Source: Candidatus Iainarchaeum sp.
GTDB taxonomy: Archaea > Micrarchaeota > Micrarchaeia > Anstonellales > Bilamarchaeaceae
Reading direction: 5' to 3'
Assembly: GCA_028714535.1 (NCBI GenBank)
Contig: JAQTME010000004.1
Location: 7,319 to 71,318, forward strand
Length of the DNA: 64,000 bases
Under the pieces are notes generated by a model that saw nothing but the letters and a program-made list of their open reading frames with translations, had not been told where the DNA came from and did not search any database. Numbering within the stretch: position 1 is the stretch's first letter; each line of letters begins with the position of its first letter. The translations under genes were made by a program, and so were the position numbers. Shown here piece after piece: positions 5,411 through 46,998 of this stretch.

Positions 5411-8400
5411 TCATTTCACTTCCTGCTGCGGCGTGACTACCACCACAGCGCGGCTCTCCGAGAACTTCACGACCCTGTCCGAGGCCGGGCTCGCCTTCTC
5501 CACCTGCTCGATATTGCCGCTCGCCTTGCCGCTGCCTATGTCGGCAATGAGGGTCAGCGTCGCCGAGACGTCCTTCAGGCTCGCTGATTTCGGCCTCGAA
5601 ACCATGGACATGTTCGCGTTAAGCGTCGCGTCCATCTCCGGCTCGTAGTCGGTCCCCTTCTTTATGCGGTAAAGCACGTCTTCAGGAGCCACCCTCCCCT
5701 TGGAGAGCTTACCGGCGTACGCCGGGCCCCTGGTCTCCACCGGCGGGGTCGGCTCTGCGCGAACCACCGCCCTGCCGATTTTCGTGCCGTCTGTCAGCAC
5801 CACGTTGTCCATCACGACGCCTATGTAGGCGTGCTCAGGGTCGCTCCTGTACGCAGGGTTGAGCAGGAACTCCTGCCCTGCCTGTTCCTGGTACCAGAAG
5901 TAATTGAACACCACCATCGCGTCCGGGTGCATCTTCGCGGCCTGGGCGTGTGTGTACGCCTTGCCCCCCTCCACCCATGTCATGTTGGTCGGGGAAGCGT
6001 ACACGAAGTGGCCCCTCGTGCGCGTGTCCTTTATTATGGCAATCGCGTCTGCCGGGACCGATGTCGTTACCGGCGTCTCAGGCAGCACCATGCCCTCGAG
6101 GTTCTTGTCGTCGAGGCTCGCCAGGGCCTGCTCTGCTGTCATTATGGACTGCACGGGCGTCATGGGCACCGAGCCGTTGAAGAGGCTGGTCCCGATTCTC
6201 ATGCCATACCTGGTGCGGAGCGCCTTGAGCTCGTCAAGCGATTCCACCGCCCTGACCACGAAATACCTCTTCGCGTCCCCTGACGTCACGAGCGTGCGGA
6301 TGGGCACCGTCGCCTTCCTGCCCGCAATCTCGACCTCTATGGACGCGGCCAGCCTCTTCTCCAGCTGCTGCAGCTTGAGATCGAGGATCTGCATGAACCC
6401 GTTGTTGATGGCGGTTATCTGCGCCTCCGGGGTCGTCGCTGCCTTGCCGTAGTTGAGGGAAATGTTGCGCATGCCTGCGGTGAACACCGATGCATCGAAA
6501 TTCCTCAGGAGCTCAGGGACGTTCTTGTCGCCGTTGAGTATCTCCTGCCTGTAGACCTCTGCAAAGAGGGCGCCCTGCGGGTATACCGGGGCGTCCAGGT
6601 GGCCCCTCTCCTGGTGGTCCACGTGCCTGTCTGCTATGGCCACGGTCGGGCTGGGCCTTGAAGCCTCGATCAGGAGCGGCTTCCTGACGACATCCGGGCT
6701 GAGCAGCCCGTAGGCGGTCATGAATGCCTGGCTCGGCGCGGGCAGCACCGGGCGCTCGAAGTCCCCTGCCCTCTTGCTGGCCAGCATCCTTATGTGGCCT
6801 GCCTCTGCGTTGCGGGCAGCCTCGACCGCCACATCACGGTCCGTCAGCTGCGCCTCTCTCATCTTGTCGAGGTCCACCTGTGCGCCCTTGGCTCCTACGC
6901 GGAGCTCAAGGACATGGCTCTTGGCGGCTTCGCTCTTGAAAAGCACTTCGTATCCTGCATGGACCTCGGTGGTGCCGAATATGGCCGGTGCGAGGAGGTG
7001 GATTGCATTCGAGGCCACGTCCCTCGCGAGGTCCGGATATGAATAGAACTGCGTGGGCCCTGCTTCAGGCACCTTGTAGCAGTGCTCGAACCTTCTCAGC
7101 GATGCGTTTATTATCTCCCTGGCCTGGCCGAACTGCTCTTTCGTCAGGTCTGCGCGGCCGATTGTGCCGGTGTTGAGTATCCATGTCTCAGCCGCCCTTG
7201 TGGCCACCATGTCCAGGGCCATGCTCCAGAGCGCGTCCGCGTATGCTATCTTGCCCTCCTTCTCCGTGGGCTGCTCCATCCCCAGCCACTTGTTCGCGGC
7301 TATGATGCGCTGGTCTGTCTGCTGGACGCCGGACGCCGACAGGAGCGAGGCTGCGGTCTGCACATAATAGCGCGCATCCTGCAGCTGCATGTCCACGTTG
7401 GCGTGGCCGGCATACTGGGCGTAGTCCTGGGCCCAGAGGGTCCAGGCGGAGTTCAGCGAAGCGAGCGTCTGCACCACTGGCTCTGTCGCCGCGTTGACCG
7501 GGGCGAACTGGTATGCTATGCGGTAGACGCCGTAGAGCGCGTCCTCCGTCATCCACCGCGGGTTGCTCATGAGCGCTGCCCTGACCTTCTTTTCCGGCTC
7601 AAGGTAGTTGCCCGTGGCGTTCCTGTACTGCGCGATGAGGAAAGTGCGGAGTTCAGGCGGGTAAAACTCATACGGGCTGATGCTCGGGTTCACCATGATC
7701 GCGGCCGCGGTGGAATATGCCTTCCACGCGTCCTGCCTTGCCGTTGCGTCCTTGCCCGCCAGGCCGTTCTGGAACGCGTAGCTCCACATGCCGACGAGGT
7801 CGCTTATGGCGCGGCTGTCCTTCATCAGTGCCTGCTCCATGTCCGCGACCTGCGTATATGAATACCTGCCCTTGGCAGTGGCGATCTGCCTGCCTACCTG
7901 TTCCAGGCGGTTGCTTGCGGCCGCCACCAGGCTGCCGCTGCCGTTGTCTACGCCTGTGCCGAGGGCGTGGTAGTACCTGTTATACTCTATTATCTTCTGG
8001 CTGTTCTTGAGCGCTTCCCCCCTGCCAGTTGCCACGGTGTTGATTCCGTCGAGTTTCTCCTGGGTGCGGAGCTGGCTGCTGTCAGGGAGCTTTTTCACTG
8101 CCTCGACGTTCCACGCCGCTATCGTCTGCAGGTTGCCCATCCTCTGCCCGAGCAGGGCCTGTTCCCTGTCGAAGATGGCGATTGCGTAGGTATACTGGCG
8201 CTTGGCCAGGTCGACATCCCCTGTGTTGAGCGTGTTCGCTGCTGTCCTGAGCGCGAAGTACATCTCCCACCTGGGCGATACCTTCATCGTCAGGCTCGAG
8301 GCGTCCGGCCTCACGCTCGCCTCGTCCTCGCTGAGCAGCCAGACGTCCGGAAGCGTCTTTATCATGCGTTCCGCGCTTGCCTTGACATCCTGCGTCCTCT

Positions 8401-9565
8401 TGGAGTCTGCAAGGATGGCGCTGAGCGTCTTGTTGAGGTCGGAAAGCTCCCGCATGAGCGGGTTGGTGCCCTCCTTGGACGCCACGCTGGCGTTGGTCAC
8501 GTCCCTGGCCGCCTTGAGGGCCAGCTGTATCGCCCTGTCTGAGTTGTATGAAGAGACGTATGTCTTGAGGTTGTCAATTGACCTGGCTGCCTGCTTCGCA
8601 TCAAGCGGCGTCGCCTGGGGCGAATTTGAAAGGTCGTAGGTCTGAAGCTCGTTGCTGATGTTGCTCTGGAGCTCGTATGCGTGGTCTCTTGCGGCTGCGG
8701 TCGGCCCGGGCGTCCTGGCGTTTCCCTCTGCCGCGCTTATTATGCGCGAGAGGTCCTGGATTATCGTTTCGATGCGTTCGCGTTCAGCCGGTGCTATCTG
8801 CGGTACTGTGACCTTGACCGGAACTGCGGTGGTGGAACTAGTCGCCTTCTTTTCTGGCGCCCGCTTCAATTCCACATATGAGCTCTCAGGGACTGCAGTG
8901 GTTGCCCTCTTTTCTGCCGGCTGCGGTATGACCGTTTTCGTTGTATCTGTCCTCGTGGGGACCTGGGTTGCCGGCGCGCTGATCGTTTTCGTCGGCGTGG
9001 ATGCGGTCATCGCAGCGCTCAGCTCCTCTCCGAACGTCGCGTTGTCGATGGCATTGTTGAGCGCCCTGTCCGTCTGCACCTTTATCCTTGCGAGCGTGAG
9101 GGTGTCGAGCCTGGCGGTTCCCGCAGGAATCGTGATGTAGTCGCTGCCCCTGCCCGTGGCGTCCTTGGCCGGGTTGTAGGGCCTCAGCGCGTCGTTGATC
9201 TGTGTGAGCGTCTTTACGAACGGGTCTCTGTATTTCGCCTTGGCTTCTGCCTCGTTTCCGGCAGGCATGCCCCGGACTTCCCTCGTCCTTGCGTACCTGT
9301 AGATAAGATTGTACTGGGTCTCGTATGTGGCCTTCAGCGAGGCCAATTCCTTCGCAGTCGTCTCCTTTTTTTCCGTCGTAACTGTTTGAGCCATGGCAAC
9401 ACCACCTGTAACGTCAAGGGCTATCGGAGCCCCAACAACTATCGCACCTACGGCGAACGCCCTGAAGGCGCGCCCGCCCGGTGTATCTCTGCCTGAATGA
9501 GAATTTAAAACTGCGTTGGTCGGATGTTTGAGTATCATTTTTCTCCCTCCTCTCTTGACAAACAT
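5411..9565 (-). CDS. Giant secreted/envelope protein, 1384 aa: N-terminal signal/TM, Thr/Pro-rich linker, long alpha-rich body
   Basis: N-terminal hydrophobic segment FRAFAVGAIVVGAPIALDVTGGVAMA. T/P/A-rich linker (TASTPTKTISAPATQVPTRTDTTKTVIPQPAEK...). TATA-like TTTATAAA about 25-30 nt upstream of ATG (leaderless). Confidence 0.65.
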   Translation of the reverse strand: MFVKRGGRKMILKHPTNAVLNSHSGRDTPGGRAFRAFAVGAIVVGAPIALDVTGGVAMAQTVTTEKKETTAKELASLKATYETQYNLIYRYARTREVRGMPAGNEAEAKAKYRDPFVKTLTQINDALRPYNPAKDATGRGSDYITIPAGTARLDTLTLARIKVQTDRALNNAIDNATFGEELSAAMTASTPTKTISAPATQVPTRTDTTKTVIPQPAEKRATTAVPESSYVELKRAPEKKATSSTTAVPVKVTVPQIAPAERERIETIIQDLSRIISAAEGNARTPGPTAAARDHAYELQSNISNELQTYDLSNSPQATPLDAKQAARSIDNLKTYVSSYNSDRAIQLALKAARDVTNASVASKEGTNPLMRELSDLNKTLSAILADSKRTQDVKASAERMIKTLPDVWLLSEDEASVRPDASSLTMKVSPRWEMYFALRTAANTLNTGDVDLAKRQYTYAIAIFDREQALLGQRMGNLQTIAAWNVEAVKKLPDSSQLRTQEKLDGINTVATGRGEALKNSQKIIEYNRYYHALGTGVDNGSGSLVAAASNRLEQVGRQIATAKGRYSYTQVADMEQALMKDSRAISDLVGMWSYAFQNGLAGKDATARQDAWKAYSTAAAIMVNPSISPYEFYPPELRTFLIAQYRNATGNYLEPEKKVRAALMSNPRWMTEDALYGVYRIAYQFAPVNAATEPVVQTLASLNSAWTLWAQDYAQYAGHANVDMQLQDARYYVQTAASLLSASGVQQTDQRIIAANKWLGMEQPTEKEGKIAYADALWSMALDMVATRAAETWILNTGTIGRADLTKEQFGQAREIINASLRRFEHCYKVPEAGPTQFYSYPDLARDVASNAIHLLAPAIFGTTEVHAGYEVLFKSEAAKSHVLELRVGAKGAQVDLDKMREAQLTDRDVAVEAARNAEAGHIRMLASKRAGDFERPVLPAPSQAFMTAYGLLSPDVVRKPLLIEASRPSPTVAIADRHVDHQERGHLDAPVYPQGALFAEVYRQEILNGDKNVPELLRNFDASVFTAGMRNISLNYGKAATTPEAQITAINNGFMQILDLKLQQLEKRLAASIEVEIAGRKATVPIRTLVTSGDAKRYFVVRAVESLDELKALRTRYGMRIGTSLFNGSVPMTPVQSIMTAEQALASLDDKNLEGMVLPETPVTTSVPADAIAIIKDTRTRGHFVYASPTNMTWVEGGKAYTHAQAAKMHPDAMVVFNYFWYQEQAGQEFLLNPAYRSDPEHAYIGVVMDNVVLTDGTKIGRAVVRAEPTPPVETRGPAYAGKLSKGRVAPEDVLYRIKKGTDYEPEMDATLNANMSMVSRPKSASLKDVSATLTLIADIGSGKASGNIEQVEKASPASDRVVKFSESRAVVVVTPQQEVK

Positions 9566-12721: not shown

Positions 12722-12819
12722 AAATATTTATCTGCATCTATATATTTAATCCTTGCCATCTCCTGCGACAATTCCAAAAAGACAAGGAGCTTGCATTTTT
12801 TCGCGCAGCGAAAAAATTA

Positions 12820-12913
12820 GCAAGAAAATGCAGAGGAAGAGATTCGAACTCTCGAACGGACTAACCGACCAGGCCCTGAACCTGGCGCCTTTGACCACTC
12901 GGCAACCTCTGCG
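12820..12913 (-). tRNA. tRNA-Leu(CAG), class II with long variable arm
   Basis: Minus strand GCAGAGG-TT-GCC..GGC-G-CCAGG-TTCAGGG-CCTGG-variable arm-GAGAG-TTCGAAT-CTCTT-CCTCTGC-A. Acceptor halves perfectly complementary. Followed by T-run plus hairpin (TTTTTTCGC-GCA-GCGAAAAAA) as terminator. Confidence 0.85.
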
Positions 12914-13035
12914 AACGAACGTGAGCTGAGGTTTGACGGTCGGAATGCCGACCGGCTACACCTCTGCATGAAAATTTCCTGCAGTTTGACTAGGATAAAT
13001 TTTCAATCAAACTTCATGAGGTAGTTCTTAAATTA

Positions 13036-15608: not shown

Positions 15609-16301
15609 ATGGAAAAGGACCATGTGCCGAAGCATATCGCAATAATACCTGACGGCAACCGCCGTTGGGCGAGGAAGAAGGGCATCAGCAGGCAGGAGGG
15701 CTACGCCATAGGCATCCGGAAGATAGGCGACGTGCTGAAATGGTGCAAGGCTAACGGCGTCCACATGCTCACCATGTGGGGCTTCTCCATGGACAACTTC
15801 AAGCGCGACCCAAAGGAGATAGAAGGGCTGTTCGGGCTCTTCAAGGAGAACCTGAAGAAGGCGATAGAGAGCGACGACCGTAACAAGGACGAGCTGCGCG
15901 TGCGCTTCTTCGGCAGGCTGCACATGTTCCCGAGGGAAATACAGCAGATGATACGCAAGGCCGAGGAGGTCAGCGGGAAGAACCAGAAATACCAGCTCAA
16001 CCTCCTGCTCTCCTACGGCGGCAGGGAAGAAATCGTGGACGCGGTCAACCACCTGATAGCCGAGGGCAGGACCGAGGTGGACGAGGACGCCATAAGCCGC
16101 CACCTCTATACGCACGGTCTCCCCGACCCGGACCTGATAATACGGACGTCGGGCGAGCAGAGGCTCTCGGGCATGATGCCGTGGCAGTCATGCTACAGCG
16201 AGTTCTATTTCTGCAAAAAGCTCTGGCCAGACTTCTCGAAAAATGATTTCGACGCCGCGCTGAAGGAATACGCAAGGCGCAGGAGGCGCTTCGGGAAATG
16301 A
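15609..16301 (+). CDS. uppS: cis-prenyltransferase (undecaprenyl/dolichyl diphosphate synthase, UppS family)
   Basis: HIAIIPDGNRRWA motif. Start 1 nt after the purP stop. Confidence 0.85.
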   Translation: MEKDHVPKHIAIIPDGNRRWARKKGISRQEGYAIGIRKIGDVLKWCKANGVHMLTMWGFSMDNFKRDPKEIEGLFGLFKENLKKAIESDDRNKDELRVRFFGRLHMFPREIQQMIRKAEEVSGKNQKYQLNLLLSYGGREEIVDAVNHLIAEGRTEVDEDAISRHLYTHGLPDPDLIIRTSGEQRLSGMMPWQSCYSEFYFCKKLWPDFSKNDFDAALKEYARRRRRFGK

Positions 16302-16894
16302 AAAAGGCGGTTTCGGCAGCAATCCTCGCAGGCGCGCTGCTGCTTGTGCTGCTGCTCGTGGCATTCTTCTGGCCGAAGGCGGGCAGCCGGTGGGATGACG
16401 GCTTCACCGCGTCAATGGCAGGCAAGTCCTATTACGAAAATTTCGACTGCACCTGCATCGGCTTCGCCGCGCCGCAGATGAACTGCCTGTCCTGCACGCA
16501 ATACACGGATTGCTACGGAATCCCGGTGTCGTGCACGTCGGCATGCAGAAAAGAGATAAACGGGACATGGGAGGACGTCTCCTGCAGCGCCGGCACCGCT
16601 TACCCGAGGGGCAAGGAATCGTGCGAGGCGCAGGGAGGGCGCTGGGGGCCCATAGGGCTCTCCCCGGAGCCCGTGTGCGTCATGCCGACGAAGGACGCAG
16701 GCAAACTATGCTGGGACTCCAGCCAGTGCGAGGGCGCCTGCGTGGCTGACCTGGCGCAATGGCAGTATGACCTGCTGGTGAAGGCCCACACGCCCATACT
16801 GACGGCCGGCACCTGCACGGCGTCCAACGCCGGCGTGGGCTGCAACGCCTACGTGGAAAACGGAGTGGTCAACGGCATCCTCTGCGTCGACTGA
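16298..16894 (+). CDS. Membrane-anchored, extracellular Cys-rich protein (about 20 Cys), hypothetical
   Basis: N-terminal TM anchor AAILAGALLLVLLLVAFFW. Start overlaps the uppS stop (ATGA). Confidence 0.55.
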   Translation: MKKAVSAAILAGALLLVLLLVAFFWPKAGSRWDDGFTASMAGKSYYENFDCTCIGFAAPQMNCLSCTQYTDCYGIPVSCTSACRKEINGTWEDVSCSAGTAYPRGKESCEAQGGRWGPIGLSPEPVCVMPTKDAGKLCWDSSQCEGACVADLAQWQYDLLVKAHTPILTAGTCTASNAGVGCNAYVENGVVNGILCVD

Positions 16895-17034
16895 TGGCGA
16901 AGGCGCCGGGCGCAGAAGGCGCTTCGGCAAATGATTGCGGCGAAGGGCGCAACGCCTGCCTAACCTTTTAAACCTCGTCGCGTAAAAAGAATATCCCTTC
17001 GTCCGAGTGGTCGAAGTTTGTTACGGGGTTATCA

Positions 17035-17121
17035 ATTTGGCCTTCGGCCAAATCTAACCCCTGTGTTCATGGGGTTATGCGCTTGGCCTTTTCGGTCAAG
17101 TTCAACCCCATTCGCTACGCT
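17035..17121 (+). repeat. Two tandem hairpins, each beginning with GGGGTTAT (copy of the tRNA-Trp 5' octamer), directly upstream of tRNA-Trp
   Basis: GGGGTTA..ATTTGGCC-TTC-GGCCAAAT..TAACCCC and ATGGGGTT...AACCCCAT. Units about 45 nt apart. Confidence 0.7.
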
Positions 17122-17124
17122 CAT

Positions 17125-17255
17125 GGGGTTATGGCGTAATGTTGCAATGTCAACGCGCAGCCTGGTAGCGCGGCAGTCTCCAGATCTCTCCCGGCACGCG
17201 CCGGGAATTGTAGCCGCGAAAACTGCATGTCGGAGTTCAAATCTCCGTGACCCCA
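17125..17255 (+). tRNA. tRNA-Trp(CCA) with canonical anticodon-loop intron (~37 nt) and an apparent additional 21-nt insert between positions 9 and 10
   Basis: GGGGTTA-TG-[gcgtaatgttgcaatgtcaac]-GCGC-AGCCTGGTA-GCGC-G-GCAGT-CTCCAG[intron]A-ACTGC-ATGT-CGGAG-TTCAAAT-CTCCG-TGACCCC-A. All stems pair. Exon total is 73 nt. Confidence 0.7.
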
Positions 17256-17322
17256 ATTTGTTTTGCTAATTTTCGCTTGCGCGAAAATCGCAAAACCACT
17301 ATAAATAGGCAAAAGAAAAAAC

Positions 17323-35367: not shown

Positions 35368-35527
35368 GGGCCCGTGGCGCAGCCAGCCCTGCCTGCCGTT
35401 GTGAGCAGCCAGGGCCTGTTATGGATAGCGCAGCAGCCTTCTATTATGGGACGATGAAGCCCCGCCGGGGCGCATTTTCCCAAAAGGAGCAAGCTGACGG
35501 TCGTGGGTTCAAATCCCGCCGGGCCCG
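35368..35527 (+). tRNA. tRNA-Arg(TCT) with two introns: ~37-nt D-loop intron and ~48-nt anticodon-loop (37/38) intron
   Basis: GGGCCCG-TG-GCGC-AGCC[37 nt]TGGATA-GCGC-A-GCAGC-CTTCTA[48 nt]A-GCTGA-CGGTC-GTGGG-TTCAAAT-CCCGC-CGGGCCC-G. Exons sum to exactly 75 nt. Intron 1 forms helix-bulge-helix-like CCCTG.CTGC...GCAG..CAGGG. Confidence 0.65.
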
Positions 35528-36547
35528 TGAATACTTAAGCCGCACAGTAGGGGCTGGGGCGAAGTGAACGGAGTTCACAACGCACCGGGCCCGTTTTTGT
35601 TTCCCTAACTCGCGCCATAGGCGCTCGTGGGAAACGAGGCGATGCTGCCGGTTTTGTTTGGTGCTTTGCATCACATGAGGAGAAGCCCGACCGCCCAGGG
35701 GTAGCCCATGTGGGCCATCTCAAGGGCAACGTTGATGATGAACGTGTCCCTGTCAATCCTGTGGTCATGCTTGTAGCTCCACTCAGCCATGGCGTTGTGG
35801 ACCATCCGCACGCCGTTCCACTTCAGGTAGAATGTCTTGTGCCTGTTATAGAATTCCCGGTATCTCATGTTCACGAGCAGGCTGCGGCTGGCGACAAGCC
35901 TGCCTGCGACTTCCCTAATCTCGCCATATTCAAACAACGCGCTGGCCTCCGGGCTGAACAGGCCGTCGAGGCGCATCCTCATGCCTTTGGCGACCGCGCC
36001 TTCAATGTCGGCCAAGTCCGGCTGCCTGTCCCCGCTGAAACATGAAGTGATTGCCGTTTCGATGTCGTTTCCGATGAAATTGGCAGCCGCGGCCATGAGT
36101 ATGCTTCTCAGCGCCCCCTCCCTCGCCGCAGTGCACCGCTCCAGGTTGCTGGCAGCCCCGAGCGCGGCAGTCCAGAGCCTGCCCGTGCCCTTCGTCTCGT
36201 ATTCCATGGCCCATTTGAGCCGCCTATCCACCTTTTTCGCCACGCTCTTTTCGTATGTGAGCGGCAGGCCCATGTAAGCGGCCGTCTTGTATGCGCCGAA
36301 TGCCACGCATGCCCTTACCTTCATCCTCTGGGCCAGCGTCCCTTCGGGCACGGGCCTGAGCCCTCCCATCGCAAGAGTGATTGCCATGCAATTATGTTAA
36401 GTGCGACTATTTTAAAATCCGTGCCGGACGCAGGAAAGAGCCGGGCCCGATTTCCTTATCCCAGCCTTAAGGCCGTAGCTTGCCCTCAAGAGAATTCGGG
36501 CAAGAAGTGGGCGAGCAGGGCGAGGTCACATCGGGCCCGTTTTTGTT
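35519..36547. repeat. Four direct copies of the tRNA-Arg 3' terminus core CCGGGCCCG (at 35519, 35587, 36441 and 36533; two extended as CGGGCCCGTTTTTGTT), bracketing the 238-aa gene
   Basis: Exact 16-mer CGGGCCCGTTTTTGTT at 35586-35601 and 36532-36547. 9-mer CCGGGCCCG also at 36441-36449 and at the tRNA end. Confidence 0.65.
35671..36387 (-). CDS. Hypothetical alpha-helical protein, 238 aa, in lower-GC islet
   Basis: Long ORF with protein-like composition. Flanked by direct repeats CGGGCCCGTTTTTGTT. Confidence 0.5.
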   Translation of the reverse strand: MAITLAMGGLRPVPEGTLAQRMKVRACVAFGAYKTAAYMGLPLTYEKSVAKKVDRRLKWAMEYETKGTGRLWTAALGAASNLERCTAAREGALRSILMAAAANFIGNDIETAITSCFSGDRQPDLADIEGAVAKGMRMRLDGLFSPEASALFEYGEIREVAGRLVASRSLLVNMRYREFYNRHKTFYLKWNGVRMVHNAMAEWSYKHDHRIDRDTFIINVALEMAHMGYPWAVGLLLM

Positions 36548-36563
36548 CACTGGCCTGATTGTC

Positions 36564-37304
36564 TCAGTGTTTCTGTGCGCGGATGAGATCCTTGACTTTT
36601 CCCACGTCGGCGTCAGGGACTTCCGCCAACACTCCGAGCACATGGCGCGTTGTCAGATATGCAAAAATGCCATGATTGGCGAGAGTGTCACCGTATGCCT
36701 TGATGTTGCGGACCAGAAGGCCCACGTAGGCCCCCTCATCCCTATTCAGGTATCTGGAAGACGGGTGTTCGTACGCAAGTGCCTCATCGCCGCAGGGGAC
36801 GGTGGTTCCCCCATACGGAATGCCCCAGCCGGACTTGCCGGGGAATTCTGTGATCGGGATCAGCTTGTTTTCCAGGATATCCAGATAGATGCTTTTCCCT
36901 CCTTTCACGAAATTGGCAGAACTCAACCCAAAGGCGACAATCGCAATGTCTTTTTCATTCTTGTACGTGCCGGTCGCAAAAACAATATCCTGGCTGCCGG
37001 GGCTCTTAAAAACGATTTCGCTGCCGAATTTTGTGCCTGGTTTTTCGTAAGCGATGAAACCGTCGACCGCAAAAGGAGGCAGCTGCTTCCAAGCCGTGCT
37101 CCTGATATCGAGCAATTCGTTCGCCACTGTGTGTGACATGACAGTCAGCTTCGTTTCGTGCTTTTTGTTGAATCTTTCCACCATGGGGTGCGCGTCGAAA
37201 AGCCTGGTAGTATTGTCACCCCTGAGAACCAGGAAGTTTTTGCACTGGCGGTCTGAGAGCCTGAACGACGCTATCCTATCCCCATAAACCTGCTTTCTGG
37301 CCAA
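36564..37304 (-). CDS. Hypothetical protein, 246 aa, lowest-GC gene in the window (~50%)
   Basis: Preferred over the overlapping +strand ORF 36480-37136, whose product is Arg/Cys-rich and looks antisense. Confidence 0.5.
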   Translation of the reverse strand: MARKQVYGDRIASFRLSDRQCKNFLVLRGDNTTRLFDAHPMVERFNKKHETKLTVMSHTVANELLDIRSTAWKQLPPFAVDGFIAYEKPGTKFGSEIVFKSPGSQDIVFATGTYKNEKDIAIVAFGLSSANFVKGGKSIYLDILENKLIPITEFPGKSGWGIPYGGTTVPCGDEALAYEHPSSRYLNRDEGAYVGLLVRNIKAYGDTLANHGIFAYLTTRHVLGVLAEVPDADVGKVKDLIRAQKH

Positions 37305-37480
37305 AATATCACCTGAGCGCTATTGTTTGTTGAGTATCATGCAGCAATATACTTAAATATGTATCTTTTAACACAAAATGGCGGCGGAATGCCCGGTCAC
37401 GCGCCGCGCCGGTCATGCTTTTTAATATCTTGCCCCCCACATCACATCAGGAAACTGATTTTTCACATACGGTGATTGTC

Positions 37481-41613: not shown

Positions 41614-42789
41614 ATGATTAAGCTTGAGCTGGACCGGAAAAAGCGCTCTCTGTCCGTGAAGGAGCCGGCCGACGTCTCCTCGCTGCAGAACGGCTTTTAC
41701 GGCCAGATGAAGAAAGGGATAATATACCTCGCCCCAGAGGAAGCGCTCTACATAATGGACATAAGGAACGGGCGCTGCTTCGACGAGGTGGGCAACGAAT
41801 ACTCCTTCAATTCGGTCGCCGCGCTGTTCCTGAAGATAAAGAAGCTGCTGGCCCGCTACCTCACGTATAAGGACTATCGCGACAAGGGGCTGATACTCCG
41901 CGATGCGAAAGAGGCGGAAGGCGGCTACGGGCGCACGGTGCTCAAGAAATACGCGGGCGGCTCGTTCAAGTTCGACTCGTTCGCCTTCGAAGGGCTTTTC
42001 TTCCCGCAGGACTTATTGACGCTGGTCGACGACGAGAAGGTTGGCAAGGAACTCTACGAGCGGTATTGGATAGGCCAGTTCGGCACCTACAAGGCTGCGC
42101 ACCGCGGCCGCATATCCAAGCTGGACGTGTATGAGACGATTTTCCTGCTCAAGCACGGCGGCCTGCACCTTACGAATGCGAAGCTGCACGACGTCGAGAA
42201 GACGGCGCGCAAGCGCATAAAGTTCTTCGACGACATGTACCTCGTCTACGAGGACTGGAGGCGCAGGGGCTACGTGGTCAAGACCGGCTTCAAGTTCGGC
42301 ACCCATTTCAGGATATACTTCCCGGGCGCGTCGCCCGTCCGCGCAGAGGACGAATGGATGCACTCCAGGCACGTGATACACAACTTCCCCAGGAAGCACA
42401 AGCTGCTCATCTCGGAATGGGCGCGCGCCATCCGCGTGGCGCACAGCGTGAAGAAGACGTTCATACTGGCGATTCCGGGCAAGAAGGCCGCCATAAAGGT
42501 CGACCCGAAGAAGCCGCGGCTTGACTTCCTGCTCTACCACCGCCGCAAGGACGGCATAGAGACGCCGAAGGACGGCACGCCGCGCTACCTGATGTACTCG
42601 CTCACCGAGGACGAATATATCGGCGGCGAGGGGCTGGCCGAGGCGCTCGCGGAGGCCAGGCATTACGGCCTGGAGATGATGATGGCCATAAGCGACAGGG
42701 AGAGCAGCGTCACATACTACATAATCAAGGAGATCGAGCTCCCGGGGAGCGAATACGAGTACTATGAAATTGAGTGGTTGCAACCTTAG
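41614..42789 (+). CDS. endA: tRNA-splicing endonuclease with two tandem EndA-like units (alpha2/epsilon2-type architecture), 391 aa
   Basis: C-terminal catalytic unit GYVVKTGFKFGTHFRIY...HSRHV...K. Upstream degenerate repeat unit. Start chosen at MIKLELD just after the HAD stop. Confidence 0.65.
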   Translation: MIKLELDRKKRSLSVKEPADVSSLQNGFYGQMKKGIIYLAPEEALYIMDIRNGRCFDEVGNEYSFNSVAALFLKIKKLLARYLTYKDYRDKGLILRDAKEAEGGYGRTVLKKYAGGSFKFDSFAFEGLFFPQDLLTLVDDEKVGKELYERYWIGQFGTYKAAHRGRISKLDVYETIFLLKHGGLHLTNAKLHDVEKTARKRIKFFDDMYLVYEDWRRRGYVVKTGFKFGTHFRIYFPGASPVRAEDEWMHSRHVIHNFPRKHKLLISEWARAIRVAHSVKKTFILAIPGKKAAIKVDPKKPRLDFLLYHRRKDGIETPKDGTPRYLMYSLTEDEYIGGEGLAEALAEARHYGLEMMMAISDRESSVTYYIIKEIELPGSEYEYYEIEWLQP

Positions 42790-46720: not shown

Positions 46721-46998
46721 CTGTAATCACCTGTTAATCCATTCTGGAAATTCCGCTATTTATATATTTCTGACAAAAATATTCCTATAGGAATATCAAG
46801 AAGGCGGCTTACGGCACTGGATGTCGTGCTCATGGAAAACGGGCCAGTTGTGAAATCCGCGGATTTCACTTCCGTCCCGATTCTCGTGAGGGCTGGCGCC
46901 AAGGCTGAAGCTAATGATGAGGAGAATCGGGCCCGGTGCGTTCATGGACGGCGATCCGTCCATGTGCACCCGGCCCTAACGTGCTGCTTATGTCTTCA

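Follow-up and report, generated by a model that had tools for sequence, protein, structure and literature searches.

We analyzed a 64,000-nt stretch of DNA, here called the window, from Candidatus Iainarchaeum sp. (Micrarchaeota; Bilamarchaeaceae; contig JAQTME010000004.1). At 17125-17255 on its plus strand it encodes a tRNA-Trp(CCA) that is interrupted by two introns and preceded by two hairpin units, each of which begins with a copy of the tRNA's own 5' end. Orthologous tRNA-Trp loci were collected from relatives by synteny with a gene for a UppS-type prenyltransferase (L001-L013) or by the tRNA 3' end (L014-L029). The features of the locus are listed below; intron 1 was placed by comparison with relatives that lack it and by its bulge-helix-bulge (BHB) geometry.

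16966-16972, plus strand: TATA-like element TTTTAAA, at the same place in L001, L009 and L010, and as ATATAAA in L029
16997-17016, plus strand: ancestral leader hairpin CTTCGTCC-GAGT-GGTCGAAG, followed by TTTGTTAC
17025-17061, plus strand: hairpin unit 1, with 5' arm GGGGTTAT (exactly tRNA nt 1-8), core ATTTGGCC/GGCCAAAT and 3' arm TAACCCC
17062-17070, plus strand: spacer 1, TGTGTTCAT, ending in TTCAT as do natural short tRNA leaders of the clade
17071-17109, plus strand: hairpin unit 2, with 5' arm GGGGTTATG, core CTTGGCC/GGTCAAG and 3' arm CAACCCC
17110-17124, plus strand: spacer 2, ATTCGCTACGCTCAT, directly 5' of tRNA position +1
17125-17139, plus strand: tRNA-Trp exon 1, nt 1-15, GGGGTTATGGCGTAA
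17140-17160, plus strand: intron 1, 21 nt, in the D-loop at 15/16
17161-17183, plus strand: tRNA-Trp exon 2, nt 16-37, holding the anticodon CCA
17184-17220, plus strand: intron 2, 37 nt, at 37/38, with the hairpin TCCCGGC/GCCGGGA
17221-17255, plus strand: tRNA-Trp exon 3, nt 38-73, with discriminator A and no encoded CCA
17260-17296, plus strand: AT-rich trailer hairpin GTTTTGC..TTTTCGC / GCGAAAA..GCAAAAC, after tRNA-Trp

The tRNA-Trp gene was missed by ARAGORN at default settings and by an Rfam scan at the gathering threshold. When sensitive filters were used, the Rfam tRNA model RF00005 scored 40.7 bits on 17125-17255 (gathering threshold, 29), spanning model positions 1-71 and placing the extra bases in the D-loop. 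Deletion of the 21 nt of intron 1 led ARAGORN to call tRNA-Trp(CCA) with a 37-nt anticodon-loop intron, and removal of both the 21 nt and the 37 nt left a clean 73-nt tRNA-Trp, called as tRNA-Trp(cca). The Rfam score and the call on the spliced form uphold the identity given to this gene in an initial annotation made from the letters of the sequence. Run with its intron option, ARAGORN gave the multi-intron tRNA-Trp genes wrong labels that varied between loci (Tyr, Cys, Pro, Gly, or Arg), so automated annotation of these metagenome-assembled genomes (MAGs) likely mislabels or misses tRNA-Trp. Standard tRNA finders overlook or mis-call such genes, as the tRNA-Trp and tRNA-Arg(TCT) of the window illustrate.

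Copies of GGGGTTAT begin at 17025, 17071, and 17125, and the second and third have 13 nt in common (TCATGGGGTTATG). The three tandem octamer copies of the initial annotation are therefore present, but their spacing is 46 and 54 nt rather than a uniform ~45 nt. A search of the whole window for the 10-mer with one mismatch returned 4 matches where 1.5 were expected, which is not rare; the non-random feature is the clustering of the copies together with their hairpin partners. As had been predicted, the first two units form strong hairpins. Unit 1 folds at -20.2 kcal/mol (z = -5.8) and unit 2 at -19.8 kcal/mol (z = -4.2), where z-scores compare fold energy with that of shuffled sequence, and no shuffle folded as well as either unit. 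The two units are homologous (~80% over both arms). The 38-46 nt between the tRNA-Trp copies are no copy of neighboring DNA, so the suggestion that the array consists of relics of repeated partial duplication applies to the duplicated 8-13 nt and not to the sequence between them.

From its position, TTTTAAA would serve as the promoter. Given the conservation of this element and the usual archaeal spacing, transcription would start near 16995, upstream of the leader hairpin, and not at the first octamer copy as initially proposed. With a TATA-like element upstream and a 5' arm that copies tRNA nt 1-8, the units are consistent with the acceptor-strand mimics in the leader envisaged at the outset. 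The leader hairpin itself folds at -7.6 kcal/mol (z = -2.8); its position is kept in relatives while its sequence differs, reading CTCGGGCC/GGCCCGAG in L001 and CTCTGA/TCAGAG in L009 and L029. Equivalents of this hairpin, which stands at the start of the predicted pre-tRNA-Trp, also occur in L022 and L017, and the conserved TTTGTTA follows.

Alignment of the leaders showed that L001, L029, L009, and L004 have the TATA-like element, a variable leader hairpin, TTTGTTA(C/A/T), and then the tRNA directly. In the window, ~100 extra nt (the units and their spacers) lie at the junction between TTTGTTA(C/A/T) and the tRNA, and the first octamer copy retains the ancestral flank GTTAC. L029 and L001, both without units, are the closest to the window by tRNA-Trp and intron sequence. 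Since the units are absent from four related lineages, they are not required for tRNA-Trp. A homologous pair of units does lie upstream of tRNA-Trp in L010-L012, a more distant lineage represented by three independent assemblies. The initial annotation had taken absence of the upstream copies from close relatives as a point against itself, and the outcome is divided: they are absent from the four lineages named and present in L010-L012. Window unit 1 and L010 unit 2 share an identical 20-nt run, and the order of unit types differs between the two lineages. One spacer is common to both; spacer 2 is near-identical to ATTCGCTATCGCTCAT, which parts the two L010 units. The L010 tRNA-Trp starts GGGGTCAT, and the 5' arms of both its units read GGTCAT (T6-to-C), while one 3' arm is still TAACCCC, leaving a C-A mismatch in the hairpin. 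That the 5' arms carry the C6 of the tRNA despite this mismatch indicates that the 5' arm tracks the tRNA and not its hairpin partner, as would be expected of an arm derived from the target. Looser GGGG...CCCC hairpins flank tRNA-Trp upstream in L019 and downstream in L015 and L016. A search of metagenome contigs with the unit core TTTGGCC..GGCCAAATCTNNCCCC gave two chance matches with no tRNA near, in a collection that evidently lacks the Joint Genome Institute samples of L010/L011.

Units are not confined to tRNA-Trp. All four tRNA genes in the window carry them, tRNA-Leu having one upstream and both tRNA-Arg genes having theirs downstream:

12912-12829, minus strand: tRNA-Leu(CAG)
12913-12967, minus strand: tRNA-Leu upstream unit GCAGAGGT..ACCTCAGC, 43 nt (12967-12925), with a 12-nt spacer TCACGTTCGTTC (12924-12913)
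35368-35527, plus strand: tRNA-Arg(TCT), with two introns, found by a T-loop motif search; its spliced form is called tRNA-Arg(tct) by ARAGORN
35528-35593, plus strand: spacer and hairpin A (35550-35593), then a T-run; the 3' arm CCGGGCCCG is the exact 3' end of tRNA-Arg(TCT)
35528-36449, plus strand: 922-bp block with (G)CCGGGCCCG direct repeats (9-10 nt) at both ends, absent from L037
46928-46998, minus strand: spacer and hairpin unit 1 (46976-46928) of tRNA-Arg(CCT); the 3' arm CACCGGGCCCG is the exact 11-nt 3' end of the tRNA
46840-46878, minus strand: hairpin unit 2 of tRNA-Arg(CCT), GGGACGGAAGTGAAATCC..GGATTTCACAACTGGCCCG, homologous to the downstream unit of L037 tRNA-Arg(TCT)

In every unit, the distal arm reproduces 8-13 nt of the tRNA terminus exactly and the arm proximal to the tRNA is the complement of that copy, and all units fold far better than shuffles. 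The tRNA-Leu unit, in the order GCAGAGGT-GTAGCC-GGTCGG-CATT-CCGACC-GTCAA-ACCTCAGC, has a 5' arm that copies tRNA-Leu nt 1-8 at 8/8 positions (fold z = -4.6). The copies in hairpin A (9 nt; z = -4.9) and in unit 1 of tRNA-Arg(CCT) (z = -7.3) include the discriminator. The proximal arms of the Arg units pair past the acceptor stem (GTGC with the T-stem GCAC), and T8 is paired with an A in the Leu unit, which makes the proximal arm the complement of the distal copy and not a copy of the other tRNA strand. A strict scan of 32 distinct tRNA loci for copies of a tRNA's own terminus (one mismatch at most) found them at 4/4 window genes and, outside the window, only in L010/L011 and L007, together with an upstream near-match in L018. 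The non-cognate control for arm matches gave 5 matches in 178 tests.

The relatives also provided empty sites. The 54 nt at tRNA-Leu are absent from L001, L004, and L013, whose upstream sequence is otherwise nearly identical, and hairpin A is missing from the orthologous tRNA-Arg(TCT) loci of L036 and L037. The ancestral tRNA-Arg(TCT) trailer of the window, together with its older hairpin, is found 0.9 kb away, beyond a third CCGGGCCCG copy; this indicates that the 922-bp block was inserted between tRNA-end repeats. The only open reading frame (ORF) of this block is an orphan of 238 aa on the minus strand (35671-36387); it had no Pfam, NCBIfam, PHROG, or PDB match and only two homologues. At tRNA-Arg(CCT), a 71-nt block flanked by 11-nt repeats is homologous to the block at tRNA-Arg(TCT), of which only these first 71 nt are present. 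As judged by alignment, then, comparison with relatives shows the unit sites at tRNA-Trp, tRNA-Leu, and tRNA-Arg(TCT) to be insertions, and the site at tRNA-Arg(CCT) would be one as well, considering its homology to the tRNA-Arg(TCT) block and its flanking repeats.

Several further observations were made at these loci. Neither ARAGORN, run by default or allowing introns, nor the Rfam scan at the gathering threshold picked up tRNA-Arg(TCT). One of its introns, 37 nt long, sits in the D-loop after nt 17 and, judged by reading, has a good BHB. The other, of 48 nt, is in the anticodon loop and holds GATGA, with CTGA just 3' in the exon, an arrangement resembling C/D boxes. A second block near this gene, at 36541-37410, contains another orphan ORF on the minus strand (246 aa). 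Comparison of the 238-aa ORF with a neighboring orphan ORF as a possible paralogue was negative. Blocks 35528-36449 and 36541-37410 are absent from L037 and L038, and the two together look like an insertion hotspot. The tandem downstream hairpins of tRNA-Arg(CCT) (46840-46998, minus strand) mirror the tRNA-Trp leader. In L007 (4186-4245), 3' of a multi-intron tRNA, a hairpin ends with 12 nt, TGCGGCATTTTT, identical to the tRNA 3' end and trailer.

To account for these observations, we propose, at about an even chance of being right, that a functional tRNA-Trp gene has acquired lineage-specific palindromic insertions at its end, as other tRNA genes have, and that these are co-transcribed and lost during end processing. 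The locus would be a functional Micrarchaeota tRNA-Trp(CCA) gene from whose transcript a broad-specificity epsilon2 endonuclease would remove both introns, while the upstream hairpins would be insertions at the extreme 5' end that are neither part of the tRNA nor splicing substrates. With each insertion, tRNA nt 1-8 would have been copied (as many as 13 nt in the last unit), and a small stem-loop would have come in with the complement of the copied octamer behind it. The units would be transcribed within the pre-tRNA from the ancestral promoter. Each would presumably fold on itself once made, neutralizing the decoy acceptor strand so that it does not compete for the real acceptor stem. The leader would be cut off by RNase P at 17124/17125, and the trailers with downstream units by tRNase Z. 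On this view, the units would not be needed as processing signals but would be tolerated as products of a process aimed at the ends of tRNA genes, perhaps a small element that integrates or transposes, or else repair at a hotspot of integration. Several observations fit such targeted insertion: the insertions are clean, the distal copies exact, and the units clustered in one lineage, and there are in addition the L010 mismatch and the 922-bp block.

Direct repeats of tRNA ends, 8-13 nt long, flank the inserts at tRNA-Trp, tRNA-Leu, and both tRNA-Arg genes, as a mobile element would be expected to leave. The duplications measure 8 nt at window tRNA-Leu and L010 tRNA-Trp, 13 nt at window tRNA-Trp unit 2, and 9-11 nt at tRNA-Arg. 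The inverted repeat consists of the duplicated target and its complement and not of element-specific ends. No recombinase gene was found in the inserted DNA, where the only ORF of the 922-bp block is without a match, and searches of the window with spacer and trailer motifs found no further cassettes. A mobile element, DNA repair, or a decayed duplicate could each be the origin of the units.

A number of results weigh against insertion by a targeted element. Searches of the 41 window ORFs scanned (Pfam, with PHROGs and NCBIfam for unknowns) revealed no integrase, transposase, or reverse transcriptase, and a blastn-short search of the 263 kb of collected sequence, 64 kb of it from the source genome, found copies of units nowhere but at tRNA flanks. 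Each tRNA has arms of its own, which an ordinary mobile element does not explain, and we know of no mechanism that yields tRNA-specific arms. Window unit 1 and L010 unit 2 are alike (~87%) though their leaders are unalignable, and conservation of this degree could reflect selection, and hence function, rather than recent insertion. Since the tRNA-proximal spacers resemble natural short leaders, the likeness of spacers between loci is weak evidence of a common element. The comparison sample is also small, comprising ~20 lineages for Trp, 3 for Leu, 2 for Arg(TCT), and 0 for Arg(CCT). The tail TCACRTTCGTTC, common to window tRNA-Leu and L010 tRNA-Trp, was downgraded as proof of a common element, as the natural leaders of L037 and L036 tRNA-Arg(TCT) are similar (TTTTCGTTCA, TTTTCGCTTAA). 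An integron attC-like site was rejected, considering that the arms vary by tRNA (GGGGTTAT, GCAGAGGT, CCGGGCCCG) and that no IntI was found in the window ORFs.

The units might instead be decayed tandem duplicates, that is, extra copies of the neighboring tRNA in which an internal deletion left both acceptor strands, the two being kept because a lone unpaired decoy would disturb folding of the real tRNA. The specificity of both arms for the adjacent tRNA and the occurrence of units on either side of it agree with this, as does CAAATCT, which precedes the 3' arms of the Trp units and is also found in the tRNA-Trp T-arm. In the L007 downstream unit, CTTGGTTCAAA beside the 3' arm resembles the T-arm CTTGTTCAAA (p ~0.07), the clearest hint that tRNA 3' portions gave rise to some of the units. 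However, when the units were aligned as internally deleted tRNA copies, their interiors were not significantly like those of the cognate tRNAs (p = 0.07 to 0.84), and in window tRNA-Leu and L010 tRNA-Trp the copy stops exactly at nt 8. Pairing of the proximal arms past the acceptor stem would be unexpected in a deleted tRNA copy, and at least four histories of duplication and deletion in one lineage, with none in its nearest relatives, would be unparsimonious. We therefore regard this origin as unlikely. In E. coli, the repeats downstream of tyrT are 178 bp long, each with the last ~19 nt of tRNA-Tyr. They resemble the units here as tandem elements beside a tRNA gene that carry a copy of its terminus, but they lie on the 3' side only and are not hairpins closed by an acceptor mimic.

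A second alternative, which we also consider improbable, is that the units are functional minihelices, acceptor-stem mimics under selection that could serve as extra substrates of RNase P, tRNase Z, or the CCA enzyme, act as signals for processing or stability, or, as decoys, draw off factors that recognize the acceptor stem. Acceptor-TpsiC minihelices are minimal substrates of RNase P, tRNase Z, and CCA-adding enzymes, and the units share with them a 7-bp cognate acceptor-stem sequence stacked on a second stem-loop; they differ in having no T-loop sequence, in the internal loop between their stems, and in being encoded in the genome beside the tRNA. A function would agree with the presence of units at all four window tRNA genes, with better conservation of the window and L010 units than of the surrounding leader, with 5' arms that follow the T6/C6 state despite the hairpin mismatch, and with the homology of window tRNA-Arg(CCT) unit 2 to the L037 tRNA-Arg(TCT) unit, across genomes and paralogous loci. 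It is harder to reconcile with their absence from the four tRNA-Trp loci named above, from 3/3 tRNA-Leu loci, and, for the hairpin-A type, from 2/2 tRNA-Arg(TCT) loci. The number, order, and side of units vary, and neither a T-loop-like loop nor compensatory changes were seen in them.

The units might also be remnants of site-specific integration, although we think this rather unlikely. The stem would be a folded mimic of the target duplex, comparable to single-stranded attP and attC, and the short units would be left after recombination between an internal target copy and the outer repeat. The attC sites of integrons and the single-stranded attP of CTX phage are folded-hairpin recombination sites that have one conserved core and need IntI or XerCD. 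Like these, the units are imperfect palindromes at an insert boundary whose stem reproduces the target duplex, but their arms differ according to the tRNA, and the window yielded no recombinase. In favor of such an origin, the tRNA-Arg(TCT) hairpin forms the tRNA-proximal end of a repeat-flanked 922-bp block with an orphan gene, of which tRNA-Arg(CCT) keeps only the homologous first 71 nt, and integration classically takes place at tRNA ends (PMC9897764). Mobile elements that integrate at tRNA genes leave partial tRNA copies, with repeats of 44 bp in one example (PMC9897764), and the direct repeats of a tRNA terminus on both sides of the insert, including the 922-bp block, recall this. On the other hand, the repeats here are 8-13 nt, the inserts are mostly 38-66 nt, some lie at the 5' end, where no larger element was seen, and the insert holds the complement of the repeat and so forms a hairpin. 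The orphan ORF, with its two homologues, also has no recognizable domain.

A further reading, in which the endonuclease cuts alternative helices or BHB-like motifs that the units make with the tRNA 5' end, the units being introns or processed leader, is very improbable. Unit 2 can pair through its 3' arm with the 5' strand of the tRNA (AACCCCAT with ATGGGGTT, seen in the centroid fold) and the organism encodes a predicted endonuclease of relaxed specificity, but across every excision register and all repeat pairs those with a 4/4 central helix had an outer helix of 0-2 bp and the rest had no central helix, the first L010 copy starts with A and would mispair with C72 if used as tRNA nt 1, and tRNA-Leu and tRNA-Arg(CCT) have units and no introns. 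Of the initial annotation's two proposals here, the alternative helix exists, whereas BHB-like substrates for the splicing endonuclease are rejected since no register combines a central with an outer helix.

Intron 1 is of a different kind. Its boundary is ambiguous from the window sequence alone owing to a GCG repeat, but L028, which lacks the intron, reads GGGGTCATGGCGTAA|CCAGGCAGCGC, and the likewise intron-less L015, L016, and L023 read GGGGTYATAGTATAA|CCWGGTAGTAC. These sequences indicate that exon 1 ends in GGCGTAA and that the intron is 17140-17160, at 15/16. The insert had been assigned to 9/10, and ARAGORN's alternative D-arm also misplaced it; the relatives without it correct this position, while BHB geometry and conservation support a second intron besides the anticodon-loop one. 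In the predicted fold, G10CGT13 pairs with GCGC to form a 4-bp central helix, the 3-nt bulges AA|T and AG|C lie on opposite strands, and GTTG/CAAC forms the intron helix. A generic BHB scan independently recovered 17140-17160 as an intron, and a permissive scan of the region returned many chance motifs among which only intron 1 was meaningful. Since the exon-side outer helix has only 1 bp and is essentially missing, the BHB is of the relaxed type. Its geometry is kept in the 13 distinct intron-bearing relatives parsed, with lengths of 19 to 82 nt and compensatory changes. The intron helices are unrelated in sequence (GTTGG/CCAAC, GCCA/TGGC, TGGGC/GCCCA, GGCCTC/GAGGCC, and TGTGTTT/AAACACA), and the central-helix partner is GCGC, ACGC, or GCGT. 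The D-loop introns of tRNA-Trp in L020 and L027 are 77 and 82 nt long. By its predicted geometry, the 21-nt insert is an ordinary non-canonical BHB intron of a known kind.

A candidate enzyme for its removal is encoded in the window:

41614-42786, plus strand: three-unit (epsilon2-type) tRNA splicing endonuclease, 391 aa, identified by PDB 4FZ2 and Pfam tRNA_int_endo

This protein matches 4FZ2 over its full length (E = 3.8e-127), has a match to Pfam tRNA_int_endo, and is 90% identical to an L036 protein. 4FZ2 is the broad-specificity EndA of ARMAN-2, the only one of these proteins for which the activity is known (PMC3488258), and the host encodes a predicted endonuclease that should be able to cut relaxed motifs at non-canonical positions. 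Non-canonical BHB introns in tRNAs, cut by epsilon2 or (alpha-beta)2 endonucleases, have been described in ARMAN-2 (Candidatus Micrarchaeum acidiphilum) and Thermoproteales (PMC3239211, PMC3488258). Intron 1 of the window resembles them in its 4-bp central helix, two 3-nt bulges, and intron hairpin, in its location outside the anticodon loop, and in the full-length epsilon2 homologue of its host. It differs in being essentially without the outer exon helix, and position 15/16 of tRNA-Trp was not found named in those two papers (PMC3239211, PMC3488258). The comparison covers the window intron only and not the upstream hairpins.

The anticodon-loop intron was noted initially and is present, but a canonical BHB could not be drawn for it. 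Pairing of nt 32-35 with the 3' part of the 37-nt intron was not found in any of three possible splice registers, nor was a 4-bp partner for CTCC at the required place. We still call the insert an intron because its position fits and its removal leaves a normal anticodon arm. Its 3' element GCCGCG (17214-17219) is complementary to tRNA nt 23-28 (17169-17174). Pairing of GCCGYG with nt 23-28 was found in 18/19 sequences and co-varies with double compensatory changes (CGCGGC/GCCGCG, TACGGC/GCCGTA, and CACGGC/GCCGTG), and it competes with the D-stem and the anticodon stem. At 30/31, L004 (3722-3892), L009 (2506-2676), and L015 (7291-7440) have an additional tRNA-Trp intron (39-41 nt), with a BHB that is good by reading of the sequences: C25GGC28 pairs with GCCG, and the bulges are AG|A and AG|T or AA|T. 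tRNA-Trp has three introns in L004 and L009 and two in L015, where the D-loop intron is missing.

The AT-rich hairpin that follows tRNA-Trp belongs to a family (TTGCTAATTTTTCGC..GCGAAAAATGCAA) that is also found after tRNA-Leu in the window (~12790-12823, minus strand), after the L009 tRNA-Trp (2678-2716), and after the L036 tRNA-Arg(TCT). In the latter gene, an AT-rich hairpin is also the body of the D-loop intron, the L036 positions being ~8220-8270 and ~8395-8440. Small hairpins thus both flank and interrupt tRNAs of this clade, and the sequences suggest that hairpins move between tRNA flanks and intron positions. Extending this, we suggest as a tentative and on the whole doubtful generalization that miniature palindromic insertions with target-mimicking stems, a class not described before, strike tRNA termini in DPANN archaea and that the same pool of hairpins seeds the unusually numerous tRNA introns of Micrarchaeota, which the occurrence of the AT-rich family both in trailers and in the L036 D-loop intron would support. 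If true, a shared hairpin pool would explain in concrete terms how archaeal tRNA genes gain introns and become fragmented.

How archaeal tRNA genes gain introns, become split, and fill with extra sequence is an open question, and here one small genome presents fresh, datable insertions at the ends of four tRNA genes. Since one hairpin family occurs both in tRNA flanks and as an intron, and sister genomes supply empty sites, the process is open to study by comparative genomics and RNA-seq. Even if the insertions are merely tolerated, they point to a constraint, namely that a decoy acceptor strand is kept only with its own complement. No description of acceptor-mimic hairpins flanking tRNA genes was found in the literature searched, which is not proof of novelty.

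Regarding the surroundings of the locus, a 198-aa ORF with no family match lies between the UppS gene and the tRNA-Trp promoter (16298-16894, plus strand). It is missing from L004, L009, and L010 and occurs in L001, L002, and apparently L032 and L033. In L003 and L007, synteny with UppS is lost and another tRNA follows that gene. The window has a G+C content of ~60%, and its core genes include archaeal PurP (DUF1246/DUF1297), the UppS-type prenyltransferase, and aCPSF1. The UppS protein matches, at 100% identity, an NCBI protein of a MAG labeled 'Candidatus ainarchaeum sp.'. The close UppS homologues were all from Micrarchaeota and Bilamarchaeaceae MAGs, and an exact-match scan with the tRNA-Trp 3' end recovered 16 loci, all of them in Micrarchaeota.

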